NCBI GenBank assembly: GCA_018266355.1
Contig: JAFEAP010000030.1
Span: 9,481 to 41,480, forward strand
Origin: Bdellovibrionales bacterium
GTDB lineage: Bacteria; Bdellovibrionota; UBA1018
Direction of reading: 5' to 3'
Length of the DNA stretch: 32,000 bases
The position numbers and the translations under genes were made by a program. A model generated the notes under the pieces. It worked only from the letters and a program-made list of their open reading frames with translations. It was not told the origin of the DNA and did not search any database. Positions 5,051 through 26,513 of the stretch are shown here, in pieces. Within the stretch, counting starts at the first letter, position 1, and each line of letters starts with the position of its first letter.

Positions 5051-5150
5051 GGCCCTATTTTAGGGAACTTCGGCCCTAAGGGAAACCCTCGATTTCGTTA
5101 GGAGATTATGGATTTTATCGCGGCTTTCAGGGACACTAAACCCGATCCTT

Positions 5151-8373: not shown

Positions 8374-8392
8374 GTTCGTTCCTCTGCCGTCC

Positions 8393-8734: not shown

Positions 8735-8735
8735 G

Positions 8736-11700: not shown

Positions 11701-12392
11701 TGCTTCATGCGGTAATGCGACCAGGCTTTTTTCTGGAGGAGCCGTGGGAGGGCGGCACCCTGGTAGCGCGGGAGCGCGAGTTCGTAGTTCTTGAGCGCCT
11801 CTTTATAGTCCGCGCGCAGGTAGGCGGATTCCGCGATCGCGCGGTAGGCTTCGCCGACGTAAGGCGATTCAGGAAATTTCTGGGTGAGTTCGCGGAAATA
11901 CTTCACCGAACTCTTCTCTTCCTCGAGCTCGTCGTAATAGACGCCGAGGAAGTAATAGATCTGGTCGAGCTTCGGGTGCTTGATTCCGAGTCGGAGCACC
12001 TCCTCGCATGCGCGGATTCCGAGCCGGAGGTACGGCTTCGAATTCGAGCGGTCGATGAATTTGTCGGCGACGCCGTTCGCGAGGCGGGTCTCGTGGACCT
12101 TCCCCTCGTTCAGGAATTCGCCGCGGTAGGCTTCCAGGTAGGTCTCGGCGAGCCGGACGTAAAGATCGGCCTTCCGGTTCGTCGGCAGCCGACGCCCGAG
12201 CGCCCGCTTCAACTCCGCGATCTCTTGGTTCCGAAGGTCGCGGATCTTGTTCTCGTCGGGCGTACGCACCGAAGCCATCTCGGACGCCGGATACGGCTCC
12301 GCCCGCGCCGCATGCGTCGAAACGACGGTCAGCGAGGCGGCGACGAGGAAAATCGAGAGCGAACGGCGGATCAGGTTCGAGGAATTCGTCAT
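8736..12392 (-). CDS. Large secreted TPR-repeat protein, AgmU/GltD-like (gliding motility complex component)
   Basis: 1218 aa. It has a signal peptide (SLSIFLVAASLTVVSTHAARA-EP). TPR-like helical repeats run throughout (recurrent A..Y/F....Y..A...F pattern). It sits in the gene neighbourhood of the PglI-like and AglT-like genes. The start overlaps the upstream stop as ATGA (12389-12392). Confidence 0.7.
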   Translation of the reverse strand: MTNSSNLIRRSLSIFLVAASLTVVSTHAARAEPYPASEMASVRTPDENKIRDLRNQEIAELKRALGRRLPTNRKADLYVRLAETYLEAYRGEFLNEGKVHETRLANGVADKFIDRSNSKPYLRLGIRACEEVLRLGIKHPKLDQIYYFLGVYYDELEEEKSSVKYFRELTQKFPESPYVGEAYRAIAESAYLRADYKEALKNYELALPRYQGAALPRLLQKKAWSHYRMKQYDKAVSTMKRAIAEGSKDEKFLSLRDESMRDMAIFLTESGRVDEALAYFKQAAGGKDFYAKTLERLGAQYERNAETAKAVQVYESLLKTNPNDEASFRVRVKLFDLDLRRSQYASALKRIQGIEIPKANTDDDTGIAATNLRALVRKTAVDAHEDYRKTQNKNSLAVAENFYTVYLNQFLAKQDEKKEIPEIQMYLAEVKRDQGKPADAAFLYKQVIRSKDERYAKQAAAFWMASLGESIAKKKDAAGTEGAKPLDEKLEMDFIEASDYVADNFGAKTEGLQARLNVIVALAGNPKRQDDAEGRIKKLIALAPDAPQTLTAARIWAQMYADRLPKKVEDIKGSSQADDFLKVAAEIRKTPGIILADQKLQKGTLAAFLDGEEARIKIGVIAGQEKSKDFASAAKGYEEFAKTEPKRELAEKSFESAVRNYVSAQDYDSATRTVAAWLGRYKDSKHAVDSLRDVATNAIIMGQFEKAGALFRILGRRGDPDSVEIAGRLYEGAGNLTEASTDFRYYLEAFKKAGNRGQIALSLAEWYDYSKNEPQAVKYLKLCFEEGNAASPECGARLADLYMRLETVPQADRTFRAVAAMGSASGRGRKGRTSGASSSPWIGYARYHLATTLERDTQFRKLSLPDDKLKRGLEERLAFLKKLNDSYQSVVAVAGPWAVAALDRLANWVMNFADEVDQIEPPKDAKPEAVAGFRKGLKSVSDPLRAKALETWRTAYQKAVELELLSPVLPSIADRLTDFGASLPNRAQGFRDKFRLSGQPADGGKEGRGNAFERIRQSLVDNAKNPTAWIDYGNLLWGDGKPLVAKIAYERALLLNPKAAAALNNRGVLIASGSGQEDWIRIAEANEYFKQAIAKDELFLAAKFNRGAVLNYYRIFTKAKPYWNQVAAVAPQPDVLDGIAISEQGQGNFDSAEKTFAKATKAGGDSDRPSVIYHQAGRISRTDPGKCLKLTNKLLDETSGFERQAVQHLGEICKSWKK

Positions 12393-13951
12393 TTACCGCA
12401 CTCCGATTCGAGACCGAAGACGTAGTCCCCGAGTTCGTCGTTCCAGAACTCCCCGTTGAAGGTCCAGAACATCTGGTTATCCTTCCGCGTCGGACGCACG
12501 ACGCCGCGCGAACGCTCGTCGTCTTCCGCCTTCGCGTGAGTCACCTTGCGGATCAGCTTGTCCTTCGCGCGACCGAGCATCTCGAGGCGGATATAGGAGA
12601 TCTTCTCGAAATCCGCGACGAGGACCGAGTGGTGGTCGATCATCGAGTTCTTCACGTACGCGCCGCCGACCTGGTGGATCGTCTTGCGGCGCCACTTGAG
12701 CACTTCGGTGAGGAAGGAAGAAAAGCCGCCGCCGACGTTCGTCCCCGTCATGCGGGCGAAGGCGGTGATCGCTCCCCGCTCCTTGTCGAGCGAGGCGTCC
12801 TGGGCGGCGAGGTCCGAGAAGTACGGGCCGCGCACGAACCGGTTCGCGAGCCGCTCTACGGGATCGGCGGTGTCGCGTTTATCCTTCAGCGTCCGCGCGC
12901 CGAGTTGGTAGAACGCTTCGAGGTTACCCGCGTTCGACTCGACGAACTTCTTCACTTCGCGGCCGATGTCGGTGTAGCGGGAATTGAAATCGTCGATCGC
13001 CTTCTGGGTGTCGTCGTAAAGGCAGAGCGCGAGATAGGTCTGCGCGCGGAGTACTTCGACTTCGCTGTTGAAGACGAAATCGAGGGCGGGCGCCTTGTAG
13101 GTCACGAGTTTCCCGAGCGTGCGGTTGAACTCGCGTTTCGCGAACGCGTTCCAGGCCTGCTCGAAGAGGATCTCGGGCCAAACGCGGCTCGCCTTCGGGA
13201 TCTTGTCGTAGGCCTTCTCGGCTTCGTCGAACTTCTCGCCCTGGTACCAGGCGCGGGCCTCGTCGGCCGAGCAGCGGGCCTCGAGATCCTTCGATTCGTT
13301 CACCTGGCTGCGGTAGCGCGGGCTCGCGGCGTCGGCTTCCGTCACGACGAGCGGCGAATACTTCTGGCAATCGCGGAAATCGTCGACGGCTTCTTCGACG
13401 CGGCCCTGGATCGTGAGCGCCGTGCCGCGAAGTTCGAGCGAGAACGGATAGAGGCGGCTCGACGCGCTCACCTTGTTCAGGTATTCGAGCGCGCGGTTCA
13501 TGTCGTCCTTCAGGATCGCTGCTTTCGCGAGCGAGAAAAGGTAGGCGCTGCGGTTTACGGCGTCGTAGTCCTCGTACTTCGTGTTCCGGATGAGGTAGTC
13601 GCGAAGGACGTCCGGGCCGACGCGCCCGAGGATCGCCTCGGTCTGGGTGAGCACTCGGCGGATCGCGGCGCGGTCACCGGACTGGAGCGTCTGGATGAAG
13701 AAATAAGTCGCCGAATTCCAGAGACCCGCGTGCGCGAGCGCGAGCGTGACGACGGCGCTCGCGTCCCCTTTCGCGGCCCCGTCTTGGGAGGCGGCGTAGG
13801 CGTAGCGTGCGGCGCTGAAATACTGGCCTTGGTTGTAGAACGTCTTCGCCTGCGTGAGCGCGTCGGCGGCGAACGTCGGCGTCGCCGCGATCGCGAGAAG
13901 GCCCGCGATAAAAGGGGCGAGGAGCGCGGTGAGCGGTCCGCGTTTCGTCAT
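12389..13951 (-). CDS. Secreted TPR-repeat protein, AglT/GltE-like
   Basis: The real start is the ATG at 13951 (MTKRGPLTALLAPFIAGLLAIAATPTFA-AD signal peptide), giving 520 aa. The upstream 100 codons of the tracked ORF (12389..14251) are Arg-rich and overlap the beta-barrel gene out of frame. There is TPR-like repeat content. ATGA overlap with the upstream gene at 13948-13951. Confidence 0.65.
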   Translation of the reverse strand: MTKRGPLTALLAPFIAGLLAIAATPTFAADALTQAKTFYNQGQYFSAARYAYAASQDGAAKGDASAVVTLALAHAGLWNSATYFFIQTLQSGDRAAIRRVLTQTEAILGRVGPDVLRDYLIRNTKYEDYDAVNRSAYLFSLAKAAILKDDMNRALEYLNKVSASSRLYPFSLELRGTALTIQGRVEEAVDDFRDCQKYSPLVVTEADAASPRYRSQVNESKDLEARCSADEARAWYQGEKFDEAEKAYDKIPKASRVWPEILFEQAWNAFAKREFNRTLGKLVTYKAPALDFVFNSEVEVLRAQTYLALCLYDDTQKAIDDFNSRYTDIGREVKKFVESNAGNLEAFYQLGARTLKDKRDTADPVERLANRFVRGPYFSDLAAQDASLDKERGAITAFARMTGTNVGGGFSSFLTEVLKWRRKTIHQVGGAYVKNSMIDHHSVLVADFEKISYIRLEMLGRAKDKLIRKVTHAKAEDDERSRGVVRPTRKDNQMFWTFNGEFWNDELGDYVFGLESECGK

Positions 13952-14775: not shown

Positions 14776-17730
14776 TCACTTCGCCGAAGCGACGAAGCGT
14801 TTTCCTTCCGCGCATCGCTCGAGGTGATCGCACACCTCGCAGAGCGAGTGGGGATGCGGCTCTCCGGGTTTTCCGCGAAGGATCGTCTCCGCGCGCGCGC
14901 GGAATTCGGCGAGGCGATTCGCCTCGAGCGGAACTTCGATCTCCGTCACCTGACCACCCGCGATATGGATCAAGAGCGCGCGAATCCGCCCGCGAGACTC
15001 CGGCACGAGCCCTTCGAGCGCCCAGGCGTAGAGATTCAGCTGGGTTCGGTAAGTTTCGAGGAGCTCCGCCTCGGACTTCTTCCGGGCGGTCACCTTGAAG
15101 TCGAGGATCGTGAAGGAGCCGTCGGGGTCCCGCACGAGCCGGTCGAGCGCGCCGATGAGCGTTGCCGTATTGCCCGCCGATGCGGGAGCCGCCGCCTGAG
15201 CGTCGCCCGACCGAGGAATCGGAATTTCGAAAGCGAGTTCCTTCCAAGCGACGCGCCCGTCGGTTCCCCGCATCCACGGCGACTCGTTCATCCAGGAGAT
15301 CACGGGACCCGCGCGAAAGACGGATTCGCCGAGGAGTTTCTCGAGCTCGACCAAACCGCCCGGCTCCTCGAGCTCGAGCGCGCGGTGGACGCGGGTCCCG
15401 ATCTCGTTCTGGGCGATCTTCGGCCTCTTCGACGGACGCTCCTCGCGCGCGGCCTCGTACGCCACGAACTCGCGCCACTCCTCTTCCTCGGTCGGCGCGA
15501 TCGGACGGATCACCGACCATTCGTACGCGCGCTCGCAACGCGAAAGAAGATTCCACTCCGAGACGGAATGCCGCGGACGGCGCGGTAAAAACGCCGGCGG
15601 CCCGCCGCGCGGATCCGGGCGCGGTTCGCTCGGCGCCGGACCGATCTCCGGCGCGCGCACGGGCGCGGACCGGCGCGGACGATCCTTCAGCGCCGGTTCG
15701 ATCCATCCCCTCCAAAAATCCACCGTCGTGAAGTCCGCGATTTTCTCGCGGTGTTTCGCGATCTCCTCGCGCTTTTTCTCGTCGTCGGTCGTCGGCAGCA
15801 CGAGGAGCAGGCGCTTCTTCGCGCGGGTGAGCGCGACGTAAAGGACGCGCTTCGATTCGGCGAGTTCTTTCTCGACTTCGAGTTTCTTCCACTCGCTTTC
15901 GACGGCGTCCTTCTTCAGACGGTCCCCGTTCTCGTCCTTTCCGGCGAGGTAAGCCCCGCGCTCGCGGTCCCAAAAGAAAAGCGGCGTCCGCGAGGCCCGT
16001 TTCGTCTTTTCGGGAAAATCGAGCAGGATCACGTGGGGAAACTCGAGTCCCTTCGATCCGTGGACGGTCATCACGCGAAGCTGGCCCGCGTTCCGCGGCG
16101 GCGGCACCGCACGTTCGCGCCGATCCTCGTCGCAGGCGGCGAAGATCCGCTCGGCCACGCGCGGGAAGTCGAGTCCCTCTTCGGTGAGCTCCTCCGCGCG
16201 GTGCCAGAGCGCGAGGACCGCGACGCCGAGGTCCTCCTCGACGAGCGGAAGCTCGAGGAGCGAGAGGAGCACCTCGCCCGGACGTACGCGCCCGGGATGG
16301 AGCTTGAGCGGGCGGAGCAACCGCGCCGCCGGATGATTCGAACGGAGGAACGCGTGAAGCATCCCCGGATCCGTCCGGCGCCACTCCTCGATCTCCGTCT
16401 CGGGAATCCCGATCCACGGCGCGCGCAGGAACGCGACGCCCATGATCTCGTTCGCCGGATTCGCCCACCACCGGAGCAGGCACGCGAGTTCGCGCGCGCG
16501 TGGGTCATTCCAAAGGAGTCCCCCGCTCTCGATCGCGAGCGGAACGCCCGCGGCGGTCAGCGCCTTCAGCCATTTCTCGTTCTTCCCGCGGATCGTCCGA
16601 AGGAGAAGCGCCATATCGGCGAGCGGGACACCGCGCGCGACTTCGTTTTGGATCAGCCGCGCGAGCTCTTCCGGAGAACGCACCTCGGCCGATTCGACGG
16701 GGGCAGTATCCGGGTCATCGACGAGTCCCGGCGTGAGCGCCCGGTAATCCATCCCGCTCGTCGCGAAAGCCGGCGCGCAAACCGCGTTCGAAAATTCGAG
16801 GATGCCCGGTACGCTGCGGAAATTCCTCGTGAGCGCGACTTGGACCGGCATGTGGGAGCAGAACTCCTCGAAGACCGAGACGTCGGCGTCCCGGAACCGG
16901 TAGATCGATTGTTTCGGATCCCCGACCACGCAGAGGTTCGCGAGCCCCGGACGCGCGAGGCGCGTGAGGATCCGCGCTTGGACGGGGTTCGTGTCCTGGA
17001 ATTCGTCGACCATAACGAGATCGAAACGTTTCCGGTAATCCGCGGCAACCGGATCGTGCTCGAGGGCGCGCGCGGCGCCGAGTTCGAGGTCATTGAAGTC
17101 GAGCGCTCCCCGCCGGCGCTTTAGCCGGTCGTATCGTTCGAGCGCGTACTCGGCGAGGAGGCGAAGCTCGGGGGCGTTCTCCATGCGGACGAGCACGCCG
17201 TTCGCCTGGAGATCCCTCACCCGCGCGAGGAGGGCGTAGAGTTCGTTCCGCGTTTCGCGTTCGGACAATCGCGCGAAGGCTTCGTCCACGTCGGGCGGCA
17301 GTTCCTCGAAGAAAAGGCCGTCGAGCGCTTGGGCCCAAAGCGACGCCCCTTCGGTCTCCGAGAGCATGATCTCGTCGCCGTCGAAACCGGCTTCGCGCGG
17401 GTATTCCCGGATGATCGCCGAGCAGAAGCCGTGGATCGTCGTCACGACGTGGCTTTGGAGCGGGCGGCCCTGGAGTTCGAGGGTGAGCCGAGTGAGTTTC
17501 GCGCGGAGATCGCTCGCCGATTTCTCGGTGAACGAGACGGCCGCGAAGCGGGCTTCGGGATTCCGGATCAAGAGCTCGCGGACTTTCCGCACGAGCGTGA
17601 AGGTTTTTCCCGAGCCCGCGCCCGCGAGCACGGCGATCCCCTGCCCCCAGGACTCGACGACTTCCCTCTGCTCGGCCGTGAGATCGCCGGCGGTTTTATC
17701 GTTCGGGTCCTCGCGACGTTCTTCAGTCAT
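14776..17730 (-). CDS. addA: AddA-type ATP-dependent helicase/nuclease: UvrD/PcrA-like SF1 helicase fused to a C-terminal PD-(D/E)XK (Cas4-like, 4-Cys) nuclease
   Basis: 984 aa. The SF1 motifs are readable: Walker A LAGAGSGKT, motif II VMVDEFQDTNPVQ, motif III VGDPKQSIYRFRDAD, LTRNFRS, TVHGSKGLEFPHVIL, and LYVALTRAKKRLLL. The C-terminal nuclease has LDFKVT...QLNLYAWAL and Cys residues at SRCERAY and CEVCDHLERC. Confidence 0.85.
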   Translation of the reverse strand: MTEERREDPNDKTAGDLTAEQREVVESWGQGIAVLAGAGSGKTFTLVRKVRELLIRNPEARFAAVSFTEKSASDLRAKLTRLTLELQGRPLQSHVVTTIHGFCSAIIREYPREAGFDGDEIMLSETEGASLWAQALDGLFFEELPPDVDEAFARLSERETRNELYALLARVRDLQANGVLVRMENAPELRLLAEYALERYDRLKRRRGALDFNDLELGAARALEHDPVAADYRKRFDLVMVDEFQDTNPVQARILTRLARPGLANLCVVGDPKQSIYRFRDADVSVFEEFCSHMPVQVALTRNFRSVPGILEFSNAVCAPAFATSGMDYRALTPGLVDDPDTAPVESAEVRSPEELARLIQNEVARGVPLADMALLLRTIRGKNEKWLKALTAAGVPLAIESGGLLWNDPRARELACLLRWWANPANEIMGVAFLRAPWIGIPETEIEEWRRTDPGMLHAFLRSNHPAARLLRPLKLHPGRVRPGEVLLSLLELPLVEEDLGVAVLALWHRAEELTEEGLDFPRVAERIFAACDEDRRERAVPPPRNAGQLRVMTVHGSKGLEFPHVILLDFPEKTKRASRTPLFFWDRERGAYLAGKDENGDRLKKDAVESEWKKLEVEKELAESKRVLYVALTRAKKRLLLVLPTTDDEKKREEIAKHREKIADFTTVDFWRGWIEPALKDRPRRSAPVRAPEIGPAPSEPRPDPRGGPPAFLPRRPRHSVSEWNLLSRCERAYEWSVIRPIAPTEEEEWREFVAYEAAREERPSKRPKIAQNEIGTRVHRALELEEPGGLVELEKLLGESVFRAGPVISWMNESPWMRGTDGRVAWKELAFEIPIPRSGDAQAAAPASAGNTATLIGALDRLVRDPDGSFTILDFKVTARKKSEAELLETYRTQLNLYAWALEGLVPESRGRIRALLIHIAGGQVTEIEVPLEANRLAEFRARAETILRGKPGEPHPHSLCEVCDHLERCAEGKRFVASAK

Positions 17731-20560
17731 CGCCGCCCCCGCTTCCGTCGCCTTCTTCCTCGTCTCGATCGTCGAGGAACCGCCGCTGACCGCAGGCGTC
17801 CCGCACCAAACACGAATCGCACTCCGCGTACGGCCCGCCCGTTTTCGCCGGTTTCGGAGTCACGTGCACTTCGCCCGAGACGTACCGCCTCGTATGGGCT
17901 TCGATTTCTTCGGCGAGCTTTCCCCAAACCTCTTCCGGCGGCCGATCGACGAGCGAGCTGCTTCGCGCGGTCGTCTTCGTGAGCGTGCCCGGACCTTTCC
18001 CGTTCCACGGCGTGAAGAAAATCCCGCTTCCGCGGGAGCCTTTGCGCGTGAGTTCGATGAATTGGATCCCGAGCGGCGCCTTTTCGAAATGGCGCGCGGC
18101 CGCGAGCGCGTAGATCGGCATCTGCAACCGATACCCGAGGTCGATCATCTGCGGCGCCTTCGGCGAAACCGAAGACGTCTTGTAATCCATGAGGAAGATT
18201 CCGTCGGGATGTTCGTCGATCCGGTCCGGAATGCCCTTGATCGAGACCTGGTCCCTGCCGGCGGGCGAACCCGCGTCGCCGGAAGGAGCCGGACCTAAAT
18301 CGACGACGTACCGAAGCTCCGGTGATTCGAGCGCGAGCACTTTCGTCCGGGCGCGTTCGACGTAAGCGGCTTCCTGAACCATGAACGCTTCGAGGATCGG
18401 ACGTAACTTCCGTTTCGTGAAAGCGGCGAGGCGCTCGCTCTGGAAAAGTCCTTTCGGTCGACGATCCGCCCAGGCCGCGTCGAGCGCCTCATCGGCGGTG
18501 AGCGAGAATCGCCCGGCGTCGTCGCGCGCCTCGATCAAACGGCGGACCGCCTCGTGCAGGAGAGTGCCCCGCGCATCCGGACGCATGTCGAGGTCGGCCG
18601 GCTTGGCCTCCCCGAGCCGCCATCGCCGGAGGAGCAGGCCTTGCATTTCGCAGCGGCTGAAATATTCGAGGTCCGAGGCGCTGAGCTCCGGACGCTCGCC
18701 CGGCCGACCGAGCGGCGAAAGCCGGATCTCCCGCGGCGGTGCCGACGTCGGGTGCAGATAACTCTTCCGCCACCGCGGATGGGAATCCTTTTCGACCGGC
18801 GCGAGCGGTGCCCCGTCCGCGCCGCGGACGCCGAGCTCCTGGATGAGCGGCTCGATCGACTCGCGTTCGCGCCCGTCCCAGTCGTAGAGCGCGTCGAGGA
18901 AAAGTATTTCGCGCGCGTGCGCGAGCCAGAACTTCAAGACCCGGCGCCGGAATTCCGCCTCGTGAATGCCGGAGCGGACTTGGAAATGCCCGGAGAGGAC
19001 TTCGCGTTCGCGATCCGAATAGAAATAATCTCCCGGATTATCGCCCGTCGTATACCTCGGCGGAAGCGCGAGGCACCAGAGCTTCTCCGGATAGGACAGC
19101 GGGGTCTGGCCGAGGCGGAAGATTTCGACGCCGTTCTCGTATTGGATCTTCTCGAAAGGAGGCGTCGCATCCGCGAGCCGGAGCCGAAGCCGCTCGAGCC
19201 AATACAGGATCGGCGCTTTCCGGCGCGCTTCGCCGATCACCGCGAGATCTCCAGCGAACCGCTCCCAAACGGCGGTGAAGAACTCGTGAACCCATGCCTC
19301 GAAATCCGGATTCCTCCGGATCCAAGCGAGGTGGAACCCCGCGACCTCGTCCACGCGGATCCGCGGCGAGAACGCCTCGTTCAAGAGTTCGAGCATCGCG
19401 CGGATCCGTTCGAGCCGGTCGCCCGAGTAGGCGCCGAGCCCGGTTCGGATCCCGCGATCGAGGATCTCCTGGTGCATTTTCCGTTTTTCGGCGAATTCCG
19501 TTTCGGGATTCCCGTCGAGGCGCACCCAGCTCGAATGGAGGAATGAAATCACTTCTTCGTGACGGAATCGGCGCGCGACGACGTCGAGCGGGAGGAGCGC
19601 GACCTTCACGGACTCTTCCCACTTCAACCGCGTCGGATCGCGCGGATCCTTCAGCACGAGTCCCCGTTCGTCGAGCGCGCGCTTCAGGCTGCGGCGTACG
19701 GCCGGCAGATCCGGAAGCAACACGCCGTTCCTTCCGAGCGTGCCGGCGCGGTATTCCTCGAGGAGTCCGTCCGCGAGCCGGTCGCACGTGTCGTCGACCG
19801 TGTGCCACGCCTCCCACGTCGCCGAGAACTCCTCGTCGGGATACGCTCGTTCCATCGTCGCGAACTCGGTCCCGAGCAAGTCGGCGACGAAAATCCGCTC
19901 GACTTCCGTCCGTCTTCCGAGCGCTTCCCAGAGCGCCTCGCCCCGGCTTTCGCCCGTTTTCGCGGAAAGCACCACGATCCGCTCCGGCAGTTCGAGCGGG
20001 ATTTCGGCGGTGCCGAGCACGCCGACGGCGCCGAGGATCAGGCGCGGGAGGTCCCACGCGCGGTTCTCGTCGAGCCACGTCTCATAGGCTTCGATCACCG
20101 CCCGGATCTCGCCGCGCAGGCGTCCGCCTCCGAAGAGTTCCCGGAGTTTTTCTTCCTGGGCCTCGCGTTCCGCGGCGGAGGCGTAGGTCATGCGCGCGGA
20201 TTGGATGGTTCGGTCTAGCTTCTTGTAGAAGTCGCGCTGCCGCTTCAATCGGCGGAGTTCGGGTGCGCGCTCGGGCCCGTTCCTTTCCCATTCGCGCTCG
20301 GAAAGGATCCGTCGCAGGATTTCCTGGCGGGATGGCGCGCCGAGGACGCGGTCGCGTTCGACGAGCGGCCCGAGGACGTGGCGGCAGAGCGAGGCGACGT
20401 CCTGGATCGCGGCCGAGGTGAAACCGCGGCCGCGGGCGAGGTACCGTTCCTTCACTTCCTCACGCGAGATGCCGCTTTCGACGACGATCCACGCGCGCGG
20501 ATCGAGTCCGCCGACGGGAACGGCGTCCAACCGGGCCTCAAGCCGGGGGCTGAATCGCAC
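17723..20560 (-). CDS. addB: AddB-type subunit: degenerate helicase-like N-terminal region + C-terminal PD-(D/E)XK nuclease with Cas4-like 4-Cys motif
   Basis: This long ORF is in the AddB position immediately upstream of addA, with an 8-nt overlap (ATGACTGA at 17723-17730). The C-terminal nuclease has FLMDYKTSS...YRLQMPIYALAA and Cys residues at SRCEMQG and ECDSCLVRDAC. The start is uncertain. I chose GTG at 20560 (AGGAG RBS 7 nt upstream). The ORF track uses TTG at 20596, and TTG at 20530 (GAGG RBS) is also possible. Confidence 0.7.
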   Translation of the reverse strand: MRFSPRLEARLDAVPVGGLDPRAWIVVESGISREEVKERYLARGRGFTSAAIQDVASLCRHVLGPLVERDRVLGAPSRQEILRRILSEREWERNGPERAPELRRLKRQRDFYKKLDRTIQSARMTYASAAEREAQEEKLRELFGGGRLRGEIRAVIEAYETWLDENRAWDLPRLILGAVGVLGTAEIPLELPERIVVLSAKTGESRGEALWEALGRRTEVERIFVADLLGTEFATMERAYPDEEFSATWEAWHTVDDTCDRLADGLLEEYRAGTLGRNGVLLPDLPAVRRSLKRALDERGLVLKDPRDPTRLKWEESVKVALLPLDVVARRFRHEEVISFLHSSWVRLDGNPETEFAEKRKMHQEILDRGIRTGLGAYSGDRLERIRAMLELLNEAFSPRIRVDEVAGFHLAWIRRNPDFEAWVHEFFTAVWERFAGDLAVIGEARRKAPILYWLERLRLRLADATPPFEKIQYENGVEIFRLGQTPLSYPEKLWCLALPPRYTTGDNPGDYFYSDREREVLSGHFQVRSGIHEAEFRRRVLKFWLAHAREILFLDALYDWDGRERESIEPLIQELGVRGADGAPLAPVEKDSHPRWRKSYLHPTSAPPREIRLSPLGRPGERPELSASDLEYFSRCEMQGLLLRRWRLGEAKPADLDMRPDARGTLLHEAVRRLIEARDDAGRFSLTADEALDAAWADRRPKGLFQSERLAAFTKRKLRPILEAFMVQEAAYVERARTKVLALESPELRYVVDLGPAPSGDAGSPAGRDQVSIKGIPDRIDEHPDGIFLMDYKTSSVSPKAPQMIDLGYRLQMPIYALAAARHFEKAPLGIQFIELTRKGSRGSGIFFTPWNGKGPGTLTKTTARSSSLVDRPPEEVWGKLAEEIEAHTRRYVSGEVHVTPKPAKTGGPYAECDSCLVRDACGQRRFLDDRDEEEGDGSGGGDD

Positions 20561-21341
20561 GCATGAACTCCTGGTAGGCGTTTTCGAAGATCGCAAGGCC
20601 CTGTCCGGGCGCGTTCGCCCGTTGGGGCGCCGTCGTCCATTCGGGATGCGCCGTCCACCGGATGAAACTCTCCGGATGCGGCATGATGCCGAGGATCCGT
20701 CCGCTCAGGTCGCAAAGCCCGGCGATGTTCTCGTCGCTGCCGATCGGGTTCCCCTCGTATTTCAGGCAGTGGAGTCCCCGCCGCTGGAGCTTCACGAGGG
20801 TTTCCGTTTTGCGGTTCGGATGGATCACGATACGCGCCTCGGGATGCCGGAGCGGGAGATCGACGACGCCGAGGCCCCGAAGCCAGGTGCACGTCATGCC
20901 GATCGGCGCGACCTTCACCCATCCCTGGAGCGAACGCCCGCCCGCCCCGGCCGGCGAAGCCGTCCCGCCGTTCGAGGTCACCGAGATCTCGCGTCCGAAA
21001 ACGCCGAGCCGGATGAGCGTGTGGAACCCGCTGCCGATGCCGATCACCATCCCGCCGCGCGCGGCGTACCCGGTGAGCGTCCATCCGAGCAGGTGTTGGA
21101 TCTTGAGCGCGAGAAGCTTTCCGCTTCCGAGTTCGTCGGCGGTCGAAGCGCCGCCCGGGATAGCGAGCACCGCGTACTCCTCGGAGAGCCGTTCTTCGCG
21201 ATACCCTTCGGCGACGAGGTCGGCGAGGTTCCGAAGGTGCACTTCGAAGCCCGCGGTCGCGAAGGCTTGGGCCGTTTCGTTTTCGCTCAGGATACCGGGT
21301 CCGCGGAGCACGAGGACGCGCGGCCGTTTCACGTCGCTCAT
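20538..21341 (-). CDS. PurQ-like class-I glutamine amidotransferase-fold protein lacking the canonical nucleophilic Cys (FGAM synthase glutaminase-subunit homologue, probably not a conventional glutaminase)
   Basis: The real start is the ATG at 21341 (MSDVKRPRVLVLRGPG...), with a GGGAGGG RBS and an ATGA overlap with the upstream stop. This gives 267 aa. The upstream 96 codons of the tracked ORF are Arg-rich shadow. PurQ-like landmarks are present: IPGGASTADE (cf. PGGFSYGD), NPIGSDENIAGL and GIMPHPES (His-Glu of the triad). The nucleophile elbow reads VIGIGSGFHTL instead of G-x-C-N-G-F-Q. Confidence 0.8.
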   Translation of the reverse strand: MSDVKRPRVLVLRGPGILSENETAQAFATAGFEVHLRNLADLVAEGYREERLSEEYAVLAIPGGASTADELGSGKLLALKIQHLLGWTLTGYAARGGMVIGIGSGFHTLIRLGVFGREISVTSNGGTASPAGAGGRSLQGWVKVAPIGMTCTWLRGLGVVDLPLRHPEARIVIHPNRKTETLVKLQRRGLHCLKYEGNPIGSDENIAGLCDLSGRILGIMPHPESFIRWTAHPEWTTAPQRANAPGQGLAIFENAYQEFMRAIQPPA

Positions 21342-24300
21342 TCCCAGTAACCCTCCCGCTTCCACGCCTGGCGGAGCACCTTCGTCTCGATCACGAGCGA
21401 AGGCGTTTCGCCGCGACGGATCTGCACGACGCCGGTACCGGTGACCGTTCCGAGCCGAATGAACGGGATTTCGTTCGCGGCGAATTCGGTCTCGACGAGC
21501 GCGGCGTCGATTTCGCCGACGGAAACCACTAGCCCGTGGAAGCCCTCGCCGAAGAGGAATTCCCATTCCGCCGTGCGCGGCAGCCCCTCGGGGTATTGGA
21601 GCGCGACGCCCATGCCGCGGGCGATGCACCCTTCGGCGATGGCCGTGACGAGTCCGCCGTCGGAGACGTCGTGGATCGAGCGCAGCTTCTTCTGTTCCTT
21701 ACCGATCGCTCCGCCGAGCCACGCGTAAAGACGCCGGGCGGTGTCCCACTCCGGCGTCGGCGAGGTCGCGTCGGGCGGAACCGCGCCGTAAACTTCGGCG
21801 ACGAGCGAACCGGTCAAGCCGAATCGCGCGGGACCGAGAAGGTAGACGGCGTCGCCGGGGGTCTTGAAGTCGGCGCTGCGGATGCCCGCGACTTTCGTCG
21901 TGCGCGCGATCGATTGGACGACGAAGTGGAGCTTCGAATTCTGGCCGACGATCGTCTGCTGCGCGCCGTGAACGAAGGGGGTCTGGAGCTCGATCGCCGC
22001 ACGGGTCGCGCCCATGCACGCGCGGACGAGTCCGCCGCGCTGGTTCGCGTCCTGCAAATCCTTCGCGGGACAGGAGAATTGGTAGGTCAGCGCGAAAAGG
22101 AAGTCTTCCTTTCCGTAGTCTGCGCCGCACGCGATCGCGTTCCGCACGGCTTCGTCCGCGGCGAGCGCGCCCATCAGATAAGGATCGACGGCCGCCGCGC
22201 GCGGCGCGAGTCCCGTCGCGACGATGAGGCCGGCGTTCGACTGGGGTTTGAGCTTGAGCGCTCCGCCGTCGTTCGGACCGGAGTGACTCACCTCGGGCGA
22301 GACGGAAGCGACATGGAGGGGCTTGAGCGCGCTCGTGCCCTGGACCTCGTGATCGATCTGGCGAATCAGCCACTCGCGCGAACACACGTTCGGATGGCTC
22401 AGGATCCGGAGCAGCGTTTCGACGCCTTCCTTCGCGGGATCCCCCCACTCGATCGCGCGCGGGGCGCCCGGCTTCGGAGCGGGTTTCGCGCGCGTGATTT
22501 CCTCGTGCGCGCGCGGCTGGCTGCCGCGCAAGAACTTCGTATCGACGTCGACGATCCATTCTTCGCCCGCCGTCTCCGGCGCGCGCATTTGGATCCGTCC
22601 GCTCGCTCGAACCGCTCCGATCTCGGCGCCGACCATCCCCCGGCGGGACGCGAGCCCGACGACCGCTTCGACCCGCTCCTCGGGCACGATCGCGACGATC
22701 CGTTCGGCGGTTTCCGAACCGAGGATTTCCATCGGGCGCAGGCCCGAGATCTTCGTCGGCACGCGGTCGAGGTCGATCTCGACGCCGCCGAATTCGCGGG
22801 CGATTCGGGCGGCGACGCTGGCGATTCCCCCTTCGCCGCACGGGAAGAAGACCCGGTTCCAACCGAGGTCGCGCACTTCGGCGACGAGCGCCGAGAGCGA
22901 ATGCAAGAGCGTCGTATCGCAAATCTGGACGTTCGGGGTGCCGAGCATCCCCTCTTTTCCGGTCGCGGATCCGAGGATCACGAGGCGATCGCCCGCCGAG
23001 GCTTCGCGCGTTTCCGAGGGGATCCCGCCCGCGATCCGCGGAACGAGCGAGAGCGCCGAAAAGTGCGCGACCGGAGTCACGCCTTCCTTCGCGTCGAGGT
23101 AGAGCGCGCCGCCGATCGTGGGCACGCCGAGCTGGGCGCCCGCTTTCGCGATCCCGGTCTTCACGCCGTCGAGGACGCGGCGGGGATGGAGGTGGTCCTG
23201 CCCCTGGGGGACGGGGGCGTGCAGGTCGGCGGAAAAAATCACGTCGGTCGCGAGGATCGGCTTCGCGCCCCGGCCGGCGCAGATCGCGCGCAGGTAGGTT
23301 TCCGCATAGCCCATGAGCGAACCGTAGGTCGCGTCGGAGGCTACCGTCCGCGACTCGATCTCGGTTTCGACGGAGAGCAGGTCCTCCTCGTCGTACTGGA
23401 GGAGGCTCGCGCCGTTCTCGAACGCCGAGACCACCCAAGCGCGCGGGACTTCCCGCGTCGATTCTCGGAAGGTCCCCTCGATGAGGCCGTTCAGTTTCTC
23501 GGGCAGCGGCGGACCGAGCGCTTCGTCGACCTCGCGCGCGAATTCGTCCGGGACGATTTCGGCGCGCATCAGCCGCCGGAACGGAACCGAACGCCAAACC
23601 TTAGAAATCAACTCGAGCTCGACGTCCGTGACGTCGCGTTCGAAGCCGGCGCGAATCGCCTCGACCTCGTTCTCGGCGAAGGAGAATCCCTTGCGTTTGC
23701 AGAACTGCGCGACTTCCGCGTTCGTAAGGCTTCCGACCGCGAGCCGTTCGATCGGCGCGTGAAACCGGGCGGGAGCGGACTTCGGCATCTCGCGTTTCAC
23801 GCGTTCGGGATGGAAGCGCTCGGTGTGCGAGATCTCTTTTTCGGTGAGCAGGGTCCAGCTTTCGAGGAGTTCGTTCGAGAAATACTCGCGCGCGATCCGC
23901 GCGAGGTGCTCCTCGGTGAGTTGCGGGCCTTCGAGAAGGAGCATCGACCCGGTCGCGACGCGCGCTTCGGGTCCGAGCTTGCGCTTGAGCACCGCTTCGA
24001 AGGATTCGACGAGCGTGCGCGAAGCGTGGTCCGTCACGCCGAGACGGAAGCGCTTCTCGAGGGCGAAGAATTTCCCCGGCCGGTTCGGCGCCGTTTCGAG
24101 CAGATCCTCGACGTTCCCGCGCTTGCCCGCGGCGGACGGGATGAGGTTTCCGGTGAAAAGCCAGTGCAGGACGGAATCCCACAGGGTTTCCTGCGACGCG
24201 AAGATGAGCTCTTCGCGCGTAAGCGGCAGATCGAGCCAATACACGGTCATCGACCGCACCCACCGTACGAGTTTCCGCAGGTGCGGATCGGTCATCTCCA

Positions 24301-24373
24301 TCCGACGGAGAAGCGGCCCGGCCAAAGGGTCGGCATACTCGGGTTTCAGGGCGACTTCGATGCGCGCGAACAT
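21338..24373 (-). CDS. Fused PurS-PurS-PurL-like protein (FGAM synthase synthetase-subunit homologue) with a divergent N-terminal active-site half
   Basis: 1011 aa. There are two N-terminal PurS-like modules (ARIEVALKPEYADPLAG..., RFRLGVTDHASRT...), followed by a duplicated AIR-synthase-related (PurM-like) architecture. The second half is well conserved (DPYLMGALAADEAVRNAIACGA, IHDVSDGGLVTAIAEG). First-half motifs are replaced: WSEHC becomes WRSVP, and E(S/T)HNHPS becomes ETEIESR. Confidence 0.8.
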   Translation of the reverse strand: MFARIEVALKPEYADPLAGPLLRRMEMTDPHLRKLVRWVRSMTVYWLDLPLTREELIFASQETLWDSVLHWLFTGNLIPSAAGKRGNVEDLLETAPNRPGKFFALEKRFRLGVTDHASRTLVESFEAVLKRKLGPEARVATGSMLLLEGPQLTEEHLARIAREYFSNELLESWTLLTEKEISHTERFHPERVKREMPKSAPARFHAPIERLAVGSLTNAEVAQFCKRKGFSFAENEVEAIRAGFERDVTDVELELISKVWRSVPFRRLMRAEIVPDEFAREVDEALGPPLPEKLNGLIEGTFRESTREVPRAWVVSAFENGASLLQYDEEDLLSVETEIESRTVASDATYGSLMGYAETYLRAICAGRGAKPILATDVIFSADLHAPVPQGQDHLHPRRVLDGVKTGIAKAGAQLGVPTIGGALYLDAKEGVTPVAHFSALSLVPRIAGGIPSETREASAGDRLVILGSATGKEGMLGTPNVQICDTTLLHSLSALVAEVRDLGWNRVFFPCGEGGIASVAARIAREFGGVEIDLDRVPTKISGLRPMEILGSETAERIVAIVPEERVEAVVGLASRRGMVGAEIGAVRASGRIQMRAPETAGEEWIVDVDTKFLRGSQPRAHEEITRAKPAPKPGAPRAIEWGDPAKEGVETLLRILSHPNVCSREWLIRQIDHEVQGTSALKPLHVASVSPEVSHSGPNDGGALKLKPQSNAGLIVATGLAPRAAAVDPYLMGALAADEAVRNAIACGADYGKEDFLFALTYQFSCPAKDLQDANQRGGLVRACMGATRAAIELQTPFVHGAQQTIVGQNSKLHFVVQSIARTTKVAGIRSADFKTPGDAVYLLGPARFGLTGSLVAEVYGAVPPDATSPTPEWDTARRLYAWLGGAIGKEQKKLRSIHDVSDGGLVTAIAEGCIARGMGVALQYPEGLPRTAEWEFLFGEGFHGLVVSVGEIDAALVETEFAANEIPFIRLGTVTGTGVVQIRRGETPSLVIETKVLRQAWKREGYWE

Positions 24374-24443
24374 CAGAGAAGCCTAACAGAGTCGTTAACT
24401 TGACTCGGAGCGATATCCTTTGGGGAACTAACCGTCCGGCGAC

Positions 24444-24473
24444 TTGCAATCTCCGGAATTTGCCCCCTACACT
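24444..24473 (+). promoter_or_regulatory. Candidate sigma70-type promoter (TTGCAA-N18-TACACT) that would give a leaderless or near-leaderless transcript of the 24480 gene
   Basis: TTGCAA lies at 24444-24449 and TACACT at 24468-24473, with the ATG at 24480 only 6 nt after the -10 element. No RBS is visible. This is pattern match only. Confidence 0.3.
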
Positions 24474-24479
24474 GTCTGC

Positions 24480-24707
24480 ATGAGTCAGAAAGACAGCAGT
24501 CCCGTGACGGGTGTGATCGAGGAAAATCTCGTGATCCTGGATTTCGGTAAGTACGAAGGCAAGTCGGTCGAAGAAATCGCCCGCCTCGATCCGGAGTTCT
24601 ACGACAAGCTCGCTTCCGAAAAGGAGAACGGAGTCTTCGCGATCCGCCGTCAGCGCGACAAGACCTTCCGCCTTTACGTGAATCCGCTCTCGAACATGGA
24701 TCACTAG
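24480..24707 (+). CDS. Small DUF3820-like protein (the family sometimes annotated 'putative quorum-sensing-regulated virulence factor' / exodeoxyribonuclease X C-terminal-like)
   Basis: 75 aa from the ATG at 24480 (MSQKDSS...); the ORF-track start at 24444 is a TTG. The core LDFGKYEGKSVEEIARLDPEFYDKL resembles the F-G-K-Y-K-G...Y..W/L signature of that small-protein family. Confidence 0.55.
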   Translation: MSQKDSSPVTGVIEENLVILDFGKYEGKSVEEIARLDPEFYDKLASEKENGVFAIRRQRDKTFRLYVNPLSNMDH

Positions 24708-24734
24708 ACGTCGGATCCGACCGCGAAAAAGTTC

Positions 24735-24767
24735 GAGGCTCGACCGGGGTTTCCCCGATCGAGCCTC
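24735..24767. terminator. Bidirectional rho-independent terminator between convergent genes
   Basis: GAGGCTCGACCGGGG (24735-24749), a ttt loop, then CCCCGATCGAGCCTC (24753-24767) form a 15-bp GC-rich stem with one mismatch. It is flanked by an A5 run upstream (a T-run on the minus strand) and by TCTCGTTTC downstream. It sits between the stop at 24707 (+) and the stop at 24793 (-). Confidence 0.65.
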
Positions 24768-24792
24768 TCTCGTTTCAGATTCTCGATTCCGA

Positions 24793-26433
24793 CTAGAGGA
24801 TCAGCGAAGCCATCGGCATACCGACGAGCCATCCGCCCCAAGACTGGGAAAGGACGCGCGCGATTTGCGGGATGCGCTTCTGGGCGTCCTTTTCGGAGAG
24901 CCCTTTGAGTTCAGGGAAAAGGGTTTCGTACTTCTTCACGTCCCACTTGATCGCCCGTCCGGCGGTGAAATCGTGGTACGGCTTCGGCTTGCTCCAGGTT
25001 TTCTCGCCTTTCGCGTTCAGGACGGATTTCCCGTCCTTGTCCACGATCTCGACGGTCATCGTCCGGTTATAGGGAGCGGTATCGAAACCGTCCTTCAGCG
25101 GGAAGAGGTCGACGAGCGACTTCGGAGCGGAATGGTAGAAAGACGCGAGATCGATCTTCGCGCTCTCGTTCGAAACGACGGCGCTCGTGACCCCGTCGAC
25201 CTTGCTTCCGTCCTTCGCCGTATTCGAGTAAGTCTTGTCGACCGTCGTGACGTACGAAAGGTTATGCAGCCCCGTCGTCATCATGCGGGCGATCGGAGTC
25301 GTGCCGCGCGGATCGAGGAGGTTTCCGAACGTGCTCTCGTCGTTTTGGCGGCGGCGAAGCTCGGCCCAGCTATAAGAGGCTTCGGCGACCGCCCATTTCA
25401 GGTCGGCGTACGCGGAGTTCATCCAGCCTTGGCCGCCTTCGCGAAGATCGAAGAGCCCGGTCCGATTGTTCTGCGCGCGCAGGACGTCGAAACGCACGCG
25501 ATCGGTCGTGACTTCCGGGTTGTAGCGGAACGCGCTTCCGTAACCGAACTTCTTCGAAAGGGTGTCGATCGCGCTGAAGAGGCCGTTCAAGTTATAGGCG
25601 TTCAAGCTGCAAAGCGAGCTGAGCGCGTAGTGCACGTTCGAAAGCGCCGCGTGGCGCTCGGCTTCGCCCATCCGGATGAACCGGTCTTGGTCGCTGAAGA
25701 AGTCGGCGTCGGCGTAAAAGATCTTCGCGTCGAAATAGACGGTCTTGTTCGCGAAATTCAGCGCGTGGAGGCGATCGCGCGCCTTCCCGAGTTTCGGACG
25801 GACTTCGTTGTTCAAGAAGTCGTGGAATTCGAGCTCGTTCGTGATCGGTTTACCGGTCCCGGTGTTCGGGACGGTGAGGTACTTCATCCCCGCTTTCCAC
25901 TGGTCGGTCGGGAGGTAGGTCATCACGCCCGCTCCGACGGCGCGCAGGGTGGCCACGGCGCCGAGGCGCGTGATCGGCGTCGGCTCGATCCAGTCGATCG
26001 CGCGATTGAAGAAACCGTTGAACGCGATGAGCGGCGCCATTTGGGCGGCCGCGAACTTCGCGTCGTCGCCGAGCGTGTTGTAAAAGGCGTCGTTATCGAG
26101 ATCACGGAGAATCGAGTGGAGATCTTCCGGCGTCTTCGCGGCGAACACGCGTTTGCGAAGAGCGATGAAGGAATCCGAGAAGTTCGTGGTCTCGTTCCGC
26201 GACTCGGTGGTAGCGACTTTGCGCCCTCCGCGCTCCTCGGCGGCGGCGATCGCGGCCTGGTACTCTTCCGCGCTCGGCGGCGGCATCACTTCGGGGGCCG
26301 GGCCCGCCGGAGTGCTCTTCACCGTGGTTTTCGCGACGGTTTTCGCGACGGTTTTCGCGGTGGCGGCTCCGGCCGAAACGGCGAAACCGAGGAACAAAAA
26401 GGTCGCGAGCGAACGAGACGTGAATTTTTTCAT
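24793..26433 (-). CDS. Secreted hypothetical protein (no family recognised)
   Basis: I prefer the ATG at 26433 (MKKFTSRSLATFLFLGFAVSAGA signal peptide; GGAGAGGG RBS upstream), giving 546 aa. Composition is ordinary and not shadow-like. A short AKTV tandem repeat follows the signal peptide. I could not identify any catalytic motif. Confidence 0.65.
   Translation of the reverse strand: MKKFTSRSLATFLFLGFAVSAGAATAKTVAKTVAKTTVKSTPAGPAPEVMPPPSAEEYQAAIAAAEERGGRKVATTESRNETTNFSDSFIALRKRVFAAKTPEDLHSILRDLDNDAFYNTLGDDAKFAAAQMAPLIAFNGFFNRAIDWIEPTPITRLGAVATLRAVGAGVMTYLPTDQWKAGMKYLTVPNTGTGKPITNELEFHDFLNNEVRPKLGKARDRLHALNFANKTVYFDAKIFYADADFFSDQDRFIRMGEAERHAALSNVHYALSSLCSLNAYNLNGLFSAIDTLSKKFGYGSAFRYNPEVTTDRVRFDVLRAQNNRTGLFDLREGGQGWMNSAYADLKWAVAEASYSWAELRRRQNDESTFGNLLDPRGTTPIARMMTTGLHNLSYVTTVDKTYSNTAKDGSKVDGVTSAVVSNESAKIDLASFYHSAPKSLVDLFPLKDGFDTAPYNRTMTVEIVDKDGKSVLNAKGEKTWSKPKPYHDFTAGRAIKWDVKKYETLFPELKGLSEKDAQKRIPQIARVLSQSWGGWLVGMPMASLIL
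26322..26357. repeat. Imperfect 12-bp tandem repeat (about 3 copies, c(g/c)(a/g)(c/t)ggttttcg) inside the CDS, encoding AKTVAKTVAKTT
   Basis: Read directly from the sequence: ccgtggttttcg / cgacggttttcg / cgacggttttcg at 26322-26357. Confidence 0.6.
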
Positions 26434-26513
26434 CGAGAAAGCCCTCTCCATTGGCCTGCATAAATTTTGGAGGCCGGAGGAATAGTTTTCAACTTAAAAC
26501 AAAACCGAAGAGA

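Follow-up and report, generated by a model that had tools for sequence, protein, structure and literature searches.

The DNA examined here is a 32,000-nucleotide stretch, hereafter the window, from the genome of a Bdellovibrionales bacterium (GenBank assembly GCA_018266355.1, contig JAFEAP010000030.1, positions 9,481 to 41,480). Its minus strand carries two overlapping genes whose products resemble the subunits of formylglycinamidine ribonucleotide (FGAM) synthase: a large PurSL-like synthetase and, directly downstream, a smaller PurQ-like glutaminase. An earlier note on this DNA, made from the sequence alone, drew attention to the PurQ-like protein as a homologue whose nucleophilic cysteine is replaced. 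Beyond what that note described, the PurSL partner itself appears catalytically dead, and six flanking pur genes are gone. The pair is probably kept as a non-catalytic PurSL-PurQ complex that has outlived the loss of both catalytic centres. Coordinates of all features are collected in Table 1.

By homology, the purQ-like open reading frame (ORF) encodes the glutaminase subunit of a split FGAM synthase made of PurSL and PurQ. Its start codon overlaps the stop codon of the upstream 1011-residue ORF (ATGA), and the frame is intact and translationally coupled to its partner, just as the earlier note had proposed. That the homologue is full-length is borne out as well: the Pfam profile GATase_5 (PF13507) is matched from residue 6 to 257 over profile positions 1-258 of 260 (E = 3e-38). 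Scores against the NCBIfam PurQ equivalogs are all below cutoff (TIGR01737, 86.6 against 298 bits; NF002252, 66.9 against 177.8; NF002957, 58.9 against 212). The PurQ of locus L011, an active relative from the cultured “Bdellovibrionota bacterium FG-1”, also falls under these cutoffs (141, 132, and 122 bits), so they cover this divergent lineage poorly. The AlphaFold model of the window PurQ has a mean predicted local distance difference test score (pLDDT) of 84.6, a predicted template-modelling score of 0.87, and a glutaminase-domain fold. Its best matches in the PDB are the glutaminase domains of the large single-chain enzymes (lgPurL) from Salmonella (StPurL) and human (PFAS), with template-modelling scores by query (TMq) of 0.75-0.77; against Thermotoga maritima PurQ the score by target (TMt) is 0.83. 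Only the oxyanion loop (residues 66-71) and a lineage-specific insertion (127-135) are modelled with very low confidence. Overlapping this insertion, the eight residues GGTASPAG (125-132; window 20944-20969) are confined to the closest relatives of the window protein: each of their columns is a gap in at least 84% of Cys-less proteins and in all Cys-containing ones, and pLDDT there is below 50. NCBI annotates PurQ as an active subunit and PurSL as a hypothetical protein.

The nucleophile column is occupied by glycine. On the minus strand, the sequence of residues 98-107 is M98 V99 I100 G101 I102 G103 (GGC, 21035-21033) S104 G105 F106 H107. In a phmmer search of the PDB, the stretch “vigigsgfhtlirlg” pairs with “imgicngfqiliemg” of T. 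maritima PurQ (3d54_D) and the same elbow pairs with “lgvcngcqll” of human PFAS, and Gly103 stands opposite the cysteine of both 3d54_D and 9n9w. Two independent structure-anchored alignments thus agree with the earlier note on all three substitutions, namely glycine for the nucleophile, Ser104 for the adjacent asparagine, and His107 for the glutamine. In the AlphaFold model, Gly103 sits between a strand (98-102) and a helix (104-111), the position of a nucleophile elbow. The former triad histidine and glutamate are retained, again as the note had it: “gimphpes” of the window protein pairs with “glmphper” in the same PDB search.

Comparison of the 120 best protein clusters, 95 with the cysteine and 25 without, places this protein in a group that shares its condition. 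The 23 closest clusters (59-100% identity) are all Cys-less, with elbows reading GIGSGFH, GIGNGFQ, GIASGFQ, GMGTGFQ, or GIGAGFH; two further clusters also lack the cysteine, and the remaining 95 of the 120 read G(I/V)CNGFQ. Every column that is invariant in the Cys-containing group and variable in the Cys-less group lies within a glutaminase motif. Relaxed motifs include GDGINCE (GPGILSE in the window), PGGFSFGDD (PGGASTADE), and CNGFQA (GSGFHT); N124 and F137 are lost, HGEG has become H(P/S)(E/D)A (HPEA in the window), and the NG at 200-201 is lost (NPIGS in the window for the canonical NPNGS). The His-Pro-Glu sequence and the remainder of PurQ are conserved. The whole glutamine site is therefore relaxed rather than the cysteine alone, and canonical glutaminase chemistry is not expected, as the earlier note had concluded. 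An exhaustive search of 1.84 billion representative proteins sets the scale of the exception: 146 of the 150 best matches have the cysteine, the other four being two fragments and two Cys-less relatives, so that 146 of the 148 representatives spanning the nucleophile column (query excluded) carry it.

Neither of the candidate substitutes for the missing nucleophile survives comparison. Ser104 is ruled out by the variation of position 104 among S, N, T, and A across the clade, and the other cysteines of the protein (Cys151, Cys192, and Cys210) are ruled out by being equally conserved in active relatives. The earlier note had left a choice between a maintained pseudoenzyme and a new activity. 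The first part stands, given the dN/dS values reported below and the intact predicted fold; the second is unsupported, since residue 104 varies and no clade-specific conserved polar residue is found. A few further clusters are of note. P0242 (252 residues, 39% identical) has the elbow GTGTSCL and the sequence LPNPEY, so that it has neither the cysteine nor the histidine; P0032 has serine in the nucleophile column (GVSNGFQ) and P0120 has glycine there. These may be further or independent inactivations.

The PurSL-like partner has lost its synthetase active site. Pfam recognizes AIRS and AIRS_C domains (PF00586, PF02769) and gives a weak match to the FGAR-AT linker, and scores against the PurL equivalogs TIGR01736 and NF002290 are 219-227 bits against cutoffs of 526-648. 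Catalytic residues were mapped from the window PurSL through that of L011 to T. maritima PurL. In the L011 alignment, SEHC falls on His32, SHNHPS on His72, and IIRD on Asp94; the window equivalents of these three residues are Val263, Glu340, and Arg362, and the catalytic motif stretch reads TEIESRTVASDATYGSLMGYAETYLRAICAG. His72 had been a mutagenesis target, as the PDB entries 2hru and 2hry with alanine at position 72 indicate. Active PurSLs share 212 columns with an invariance of at least 97%, of which only 102 survive in the subclade of the window. Motifs lost include SEHCKHK, ETHNxPS, GxxGVNRD, GGRxGxDGxHGATFSS (with a four-residue deletion), VQxGDPxxQKR, DNGAGGLSS, TDNGAGGLSSSVGE, SESQERMT, and SGKDSMKN. 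In the catalytic half (residues 251-620), 17 columns are conserved in both groups and 101 are lost in the dead proteins.

The rest of PurSL is better preserved. The synthetase domain is described as two halves related by pseudo-twofold duplication, one housing the active site and the other a structural ADP (PMC13013826), and Asp679 contacts this auxiliary ADP (PMC3815217). In the second half of the window protein and its relatives, D740-E741..R744-N745 and H901-D902-S904-G906-G907 do not vary among PurSLs, dead or active. These DE..RN and HD.S.GG motifs presumably belong to the auxiliary ADP site, by comparison with E718, N722, and D884 of StPurL. The auxiliary nucleotide-site motifs are thus retained in the window PurSL, and ADP binding is predicted. 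An AlphaFold model built from dead-clade sequences alone has a pLDDT of 86.2 and superimposes on full-length lgPurL (1t3t, 9nal) with TMq 0.77-0.80 over about 1085 columns, N-domain included, at 17-18% identity. Four residues in the former site for ATP and formylglycinamide ribonucleotide (Cys365, Cys485, Cys512, and Glu514; window 22838-23281) are fixed in the window's subclade, where they stand for Gly, Gly, Asn, and Ala of active enzymes; they are absent from the deeper dead loci L051, L047, and L048. These residues might conceivably form a metal or redox site peculiar to the subclade.

The states of the two subunits were compared in a PurQ-alignment scan of GTDB species genomes, which yielded 80 loci in Bdellovibrionota and in Melainabacteria, Obscuribacterales, and Vampirovibrionales. 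Here and throughout, “dead” denotes a locus with a Cys-less PurQ (n = 13) or a PurSL without catalytic motifs, and “active” denotes one that bears the cysteine or the motifs; L and P numbers are our labels for loci and protein clusters. Every locus with enough sequence upstream has a PurSL-type ORF of 1000-1090 residues directly 5' of a PurQ of about 255 residues. Where a full-length PurSL is present (67 loci), the states of the subunits match in all cases: 57 loci are active in both and 10 are dead in both. The sequence KVETHNSPS...GVNRD occurs in 57/57 loci with the cysteine and in 0/10 without it. In a census of protein clusters, 33 dead PurSL clusters lack ETHNxPS, SEHC, GxxRD, and SESQER all at once and keep HDxSxGG, while all five motifs are present in 43/43 full-length active clusters; the C-terminally truncated active cluster P0197 has the four catalytic ones. 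Only nine columns are conserved specifically within the 33 dead clusters, and all are conservative replacements (e.g., I/L, K/R). Judged by these motifs, both catalytic centres are destroyed in one clade of Bdellovibrionota that includes the window genome.

The architecture itself, a PurSL of about 1000 residues with a PurQ of about 255, is that of the standard enzyme of the purine pathway in Bdellovibrionota and Melainabacteria. Loci of Bdellovibrionota (L008-L052) and of Melainabacteria, Obscuribacterales, and Vampirovibrionales (L053-L079) have in common PurSL with the 255-residue PurQ and the order purF-C-D-N-SL-Q, and both groups also share a divergent, long PurC (about 400-440 residues, under NCBIfam cutoffs). 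This distribution suggests that the whole pur operon moved between Bdellovibrionota and Melainabacteria-type phyla by an old horizontal transfer. Some contigs with the Bdellovibrionota-type pair (P0008, P0134, P0144, L043) are labelled Cryobacterium sp., Methylotenera sp., or Lysobacteraceae, which are probably binning or taxonomy errors.

Both genes are kept under strong purifying selection. Ratios of nonsynonymous to synonymous substitution (dN/dS, or omega; Nei-Gojobori) within the dead clade are 0.03-0.10 for purQ and 0.05-0.13 for purSL, in the same range as those of active loci (0.04-0.19). The least diverged pair, the window and L001, has dS of 0.73 and 0.81 and omega of 0.08 and 0.095 for purQ and purSL, respectively. 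By region, omega in dead PurSLs is 0.02-0.11 in the N-domain, 0.06-0.21 in the former catalytic half, and 0.04-0.12 in the auxiliary half; the rate in the former catalytic half exceeds that in the other two by a factor of about 1.5-2, and all values are far below 1. These comparisons across orthologues, which the earlier note had called for together with the motif state, also find the Gly or Ala state of the nucleophile column throughout the clade. In a neighbour-joining tree of PurQ, all Cys-less sequences form one long-branched clade nested inside Bdellovibrionota, which fits a single old inactivation; long-branch attraction is possible. Compared with active Bdellovibrionota, the window proteins are 37-40% identical in PurSL and 56-58% identical in PurQ, and the lower value for PurSL indicates acceleration after the loss.

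The surroundings of the pair have changed as well. The typical active order is purF-purC-purD-purN-purSL-purQ-purH-purM-addB-addA, and L011 shows it in full, with purF, purC, purD, and purN upstream, purH and purM downstream, and then addB-addA; all of these flanking pur genes score above NCBIfam equivalog cutoffs except purC, which is below its own. Flanking pur genes occur at 66 of 68 Cys-containing loci, with the order reversed to purM-purH in Melainabacteria. When purF, purC, purD, purN, purH, and purM were sought at all loci with the L011 proteins, 0 of 13 Cys-less loci carried any. No pur gene lies within the 32-kb window, within the 13-21 kb around L001, L005, L007, L048 (17 kb), L051 (20.7 kb), L081, and L083, or on the shorter contigs (1.5-12 kb) of the remaining dead loci, and a dead locus on a 2.45-Mb JGI contig has no flanking pur genes at the locus. 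A small gene with an ExoX-like C-terminal domain abuts purF in active relatives and purSL in dead loci, which indicates that purF-purC-purD-purN has been deleted here. The pair thus lies between the ExoX-C-like gene and addB, its ancestral position, and is an orthologue of the active pair rather than a duplicate.

Table 1. Features of the PurSL-PurQ locus (positions in the window)
Feature	Position	Strand	Remarks
purQ-like pseudo-glutaminase gene	20538..21341	-	267 residues; class I GATase fold, GATase_5
GGC codon, Gly103, nucleophile (Cys) column of elbow G-I-G-S-G-F-H	21033..21035	-	Alignment and codon reading
Degenerate oxyanion/glutamine-binding motif PGGASTADE, PurQ residues 62-70	21132..21158	-	PGGFSFGDD in active relatives; pLDDT < 50 at 66-71
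His222-Pro223-Glu224, former triad His-Glu	20670..20678	-	Present in 25/25 Cys-less proteins
PurSL-like protein gene	21338..24373	-	1011 residues: PurS-like N-domain, linker, FGAM-synthetase-like domain; NCBI “hypothetical protein JST04_18180”
PurSL residues 1-250, PurS-like N-terminal domain	23624..24373	-	44 columns kept in active and dead, 10 lost
PurSL residues 257-269, SKVWRSVPFRRLM in place of the SQTWSEHCKHKIF motif	23567..23605	-	Equivalent of T. maritima PurL His32 is Val263
PurSL residues 336-362, ETEIESRTVASDATYGSLMGYAETYLR in place of the 27-residue active motif	23288..23368	-	His72 to Glu340, Asp94 to Arg362
PurSL residues 621-1011, second pseudo-symmetric (auxiliary ADP) half	21341..22513	-	DE..RN (740-745) and S.HD.S.GG (899-907) kept; 68 columns kept, 25 lost
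addB-like PD-(D/E)XK nuclease gene	17723..20560	-	Start overlaps last 23 nt of purQ; operon-mate in dead and active relatives
addA-like UvrD helicase / PD-(D/E)XK nuclease gene	14776..17730	-	Downstream, same operon
Short divergent intergenic region, purSL to ExoX-C-like small gene	24374..24479	.	Synteny with active relatives
ExoX-like_C small gene	24480..24707	+	75 residues as called; conserved upstream operon boundary marker

Downstream, the pur operon of Bdellovibrionota runs directly into addB-addA (14776-24373 on the minus strand of the window; L008-L051). The genes purM and addB overlap by 4 nt in L011; in dead loci addB begins within the 3' end of purQ, with an overlap of 23 nt in the window. 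In Melainabacteria loci that share this pur order, addBA does not follow. Bdellovibrionota inherited the co-transcription with addB-addA from their ancestor, and it offers no more than a lead to the role of the pair. An association with defence was rejected: PADLOC gives no defence match for PurSL, PurQ, AddB, or the small gene, and only generic UvrD/GajB-type matches for AddA. A horizontal-transfer island is ruled out by a uniform GC content of 0.60-0.67 across the window. A promoter scan of 20300-24900 found no sigma-70-like site and is uninformative.

Several known systems resemble the pair in part. In “mdPurL” of some archaea, a PurS-like domain is fused to PurL and PurQ is separate (PMC3261824); JGI annotation names the fused form “PurSL”, and the active L011 enzyme is of this type. 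The window has the same two-gene architecture, lengths, gene order, start/stop overlap, and folds (GATase_5; AIRS/AIRS_C; PurS-like N-domain), and it is a positional orthologue of the active enzyme. However, its two catalytic centres appear destroyed, six flanking pur genes are missing, and NCBIfam scores are lower than those of L011 (PurL, 459 to 219 bits; PurQ, 141 to 87 bits). Gammaherpesvirus vGAT proteins (the ORF75 family, including BNRF1 of Epstein-Barr virus) are FGAM-synthase homologues that lack the triad, fail to complement, and act via protein interactions (PMC7605207). Like them, the window pair lacks the glutaminase triad and is under selection, and from its sequence it would be non-catalytic and unable to replace the enzyme. 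In contrast to the viral proteins, which are single-chain captured host genes acting on host factors, the window pair is a chromosomal two-subunit orthologue converted in place. Scores against TIGR01739 (herpesvirus vFGAM synthase/tegument) are 62.8 bits for PurSL and 14.8 for PurQ against a cutoff of 716, so the relation is one of analogy and not of membership. Vertebrate CPS1 contains an inactive glutaminase-like domain with serine in place of cysteine (PMC4655335), where a class I GATase module has likewise lost its nucleophile and persists as a structural element of a larger assembly; the synthetase half of CPS1 is fully active on ammonia, whereas that of the window appears dead too. The archaeal Cys-less PurF' and the truncated PurQ-like Memar_1841 (PMC3261824) are also purine amidotransferase homologues without catalytic residues. 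These are extra paralogues beside a working copy or decaying fragments, whereas the window protein is a full-length, selected orthologue whose partner is dead. Our literature search, beyond the viral review, found no paper on a bacterial PurL/PurQ pseudoenzyme or on a moonlighting role of PurL.

The pair is predicted to be unable to make FGAM from either glutamine or ammonia. With PurSL dead and the pur genes gone, neither nitrogen source is expected to yield product in an assay of FGAM synthesis. The pair would qualify as a pseudoenzyme in the operational sense of a predicted enzyme fold that lacks catalytic residues and is under selection. That it is kept as a non-catalytic complex, which we consider probable, follows from the intact ORFs, the translational coupling, the strong purifying selection, and the retained predicted folds. 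Several points weigh against this reading. The His-Pro-Glu sequence is 100% conserved in dead PurQs and could reflect residual chemistry rather than structure. Synonymous divergence is near saturation for many of the pairs compared, with dS of 0.73-1.2 in the least diverged. The pur genes missing from the locus are a strong but not conclusive sign of pathway loss, for operon erosion is also seen beside intact enzymes: L021 and L027 have active-looking pairs without adjacent purH and purM, and L037 lacks purF-N and purM, so absence from the locus is not proof of absence from the genome. All three pairs retain the cysteine and the histidine. In L021 (1-7338) addB follows purQ directly and PurSL reads KVEAHDSPS; the L037 span is 6643-12429. 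These three loci may show the same erosion caught midway, or their missing pur genes may have been relocated.

The same three loci lend some force to a different history, in which another FGAM synthase and relocated pur genes make purines and the pair is a freed duplicate turned regulator; they show that pur neighbours can be missing beside active-looking pairs, and pur-gene absence is established at loci rather than in whole genomes. However, the pair occupies the ancestral operon slot between the ExoX-C-like gene and addB, and no pur gene occurs in the 32-kb window or in the 13-21 kb of seven other dead loci. A 25-sequence PurC profile, in what is a weak test, found only active lineages and no dead-clade contig among the best 120 of 931 matches. 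We regard such a redundant paralogue as unlikely. A new catalytic activity, whether through the His-Glu dyad with another nucleophile or through new PurSL cysteines in the old ATP site, would account for the invariance of His222-Pro223-Glu224 in all dead PurQs, for the fixation of Cys365, Cys485, Cys512, and Glu514 in the former active site of the main subclade, and for the purifying selection still acting on the former catalytic half (dN/dS 0.06-0.21). It sits poorly with an elbow neighbour that varies among four residues and is no conserved nucleophile, and with L051, L047, and L048, which differ from one another at every former active-site column, the new cysteines included. A new active site shared across the dead PurSLs was rejected, the clade-specific columns of the 33 clusters being only nine and all conservative, and a neo-enzyme of any kind is distinctly improbable.

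Two further explanations have very little to recommend them. A small PurL can use NH4+ in vitro, and the intact, coupled pair might be an ammonia-dependent FGAM synthetase in which only the glutaminase is dead, PurSL uses free NH3, and PurQ is structural, as in CPS1. The precedent of an ammonia-using enzyme with an inactive GATase domain is real (PMC4655335). However, this requires a working synthetase, and PurSL lacks the equivalents of His32, His72, and Asp94 and the motifs ETHNxPS, GxxGVNRD, GRxGxDGxHGATFSS, VQxGDP, DNGAGGLSS, and SESQERM; 101 active-invariant columns are lost in its catalytic half, and all flanking pur genes are gone. With the catalytic motifs missing, this possibility was rejected as highly improbable. 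That the sequence or its assembly is wrong, or that the gene was inactivated recently and is heading for loss, is more remote still, to the point of being negligible, even though TGC to GGC is a single-base change. An identical protein occurs in independent assemblies (the Logan assembly of SRR24111743, NCBI GCA_039810405.1, and an 83-kb “Bdellovibrionales bacterium” contig of a metagenome-assembled genome). Of 81 loci, 68 have TGC or TGT as the nucleophile codon; the 13 Cys-less genomes share the state through four different codons (GGC in 5, GGA in 5, GGG in 2, and GCA in 1), which vindicates the view in the earlier note that the substitution is no sequencing error. All ORFs are intact in 25 PurQ and 33 PurSL clusters that have diverged to about 30-60% identity, and dN/dS is 0.03-0.13.

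For a non-catalytic complex, the following course of events is proposed. PurQ would have lost its cysteine nucleophile and most of its oxyanion and glutamine-binding residues. In PurSL, every motif of the catalytic half would have disappeared, along with the two catalytic histidines and the Mg/ATP aspartate, and the six flanking pur genes would have been excised from both sides of the pair. Conservation persists in the PurS-like N-domain and the auxiliary nucleotide half of PurSL, and in the core of PurQ including the His-Glu loop; in the working enzyme these parts would keep the subunits associated and bind the structural ADP. The complex may thus still assemble, still be nucleotide-loaded, and act by binding rather than by catalysis. 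Its likeliest origin would be a second, non-catalytic role already present in the ancestral enzyme that then became its only role; this is the simplest history, given that there was no duplication and that the pair outlived the deletion of its pathway. The pair heads the addB-addA operon and is predicted to be expressed with addB-addA. More specifically, and only tentatively, a predatory-type lineage may have dropped de novo purine synthesis, with the whole FGAM-synthase assembly, from PurS-like domain and auxiliary half to glutaminase shell, exapted for a non-catalytic task: it could serve as a scaffold or as a regulator that senses nucleotides or metabolites, co-expressed with AddAB and perhaps acting on it.

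Other features of the window lie outside the pair. A strong 15-bp GC-rich hairpin with a T-run (24735-24767), between the ExoX-C-like gene and a convergent ORF of 552 residues (24793-26451, minus strand), looks like a bidirectional terminator that would insulate the upstream neighbour of the operon. The 552-residue ORF, which begins with a signal-peptide-like N-terminus and is also conserved beside the locus in L081, matches no NCBIfam model; no Pfam match was found for it or for the ORFs at 28743-29978 (411 residues) and 5136-6251 (371 residues), both also on the minus strand. Antisense ORFs of up to 955 residues (21536-24403 and 20418-21350 on the plus strand, and others) overlap purSL, purQ, and addB and have no family matches; they are an artefact of a GC content of about 65% and not genes.

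With the NCBI names as they stand, metabolic reconstructions would wrongly assign the fourth step of purine synthesis to genomes of the dead clade. As a rule, pseudoenzymes derive from duplicated genes. In this case both active sites of an orthologous two-subunit enzyme appear to have been lost together, with its operon cut on both sides, and constraint like that on the enzyme has since persisted across deep divergence. Such a history points to FGAM synthase having a second function, non-catalytic and masked by its essential catalysis, for which the clade would serve as a natural separation-of-function allele. The clade also reveals the regions of the enzyme that count beyond catalysis, namely the N-domain, the auxiliary ADP half, and the glutaminase shell. 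The parallel with herpesvirus vGAT proteins suggests repeated reuse of the FGAM-synthase scaffold. If this reading is correct, the pair would stand as the first counterpart in a cellular organism to the FGAM-synthase pseudoenzymes of herpesviruses, and as a rare case of the in-place conversion of an enzyme complex to a pseudoenzyme without gene duplication.

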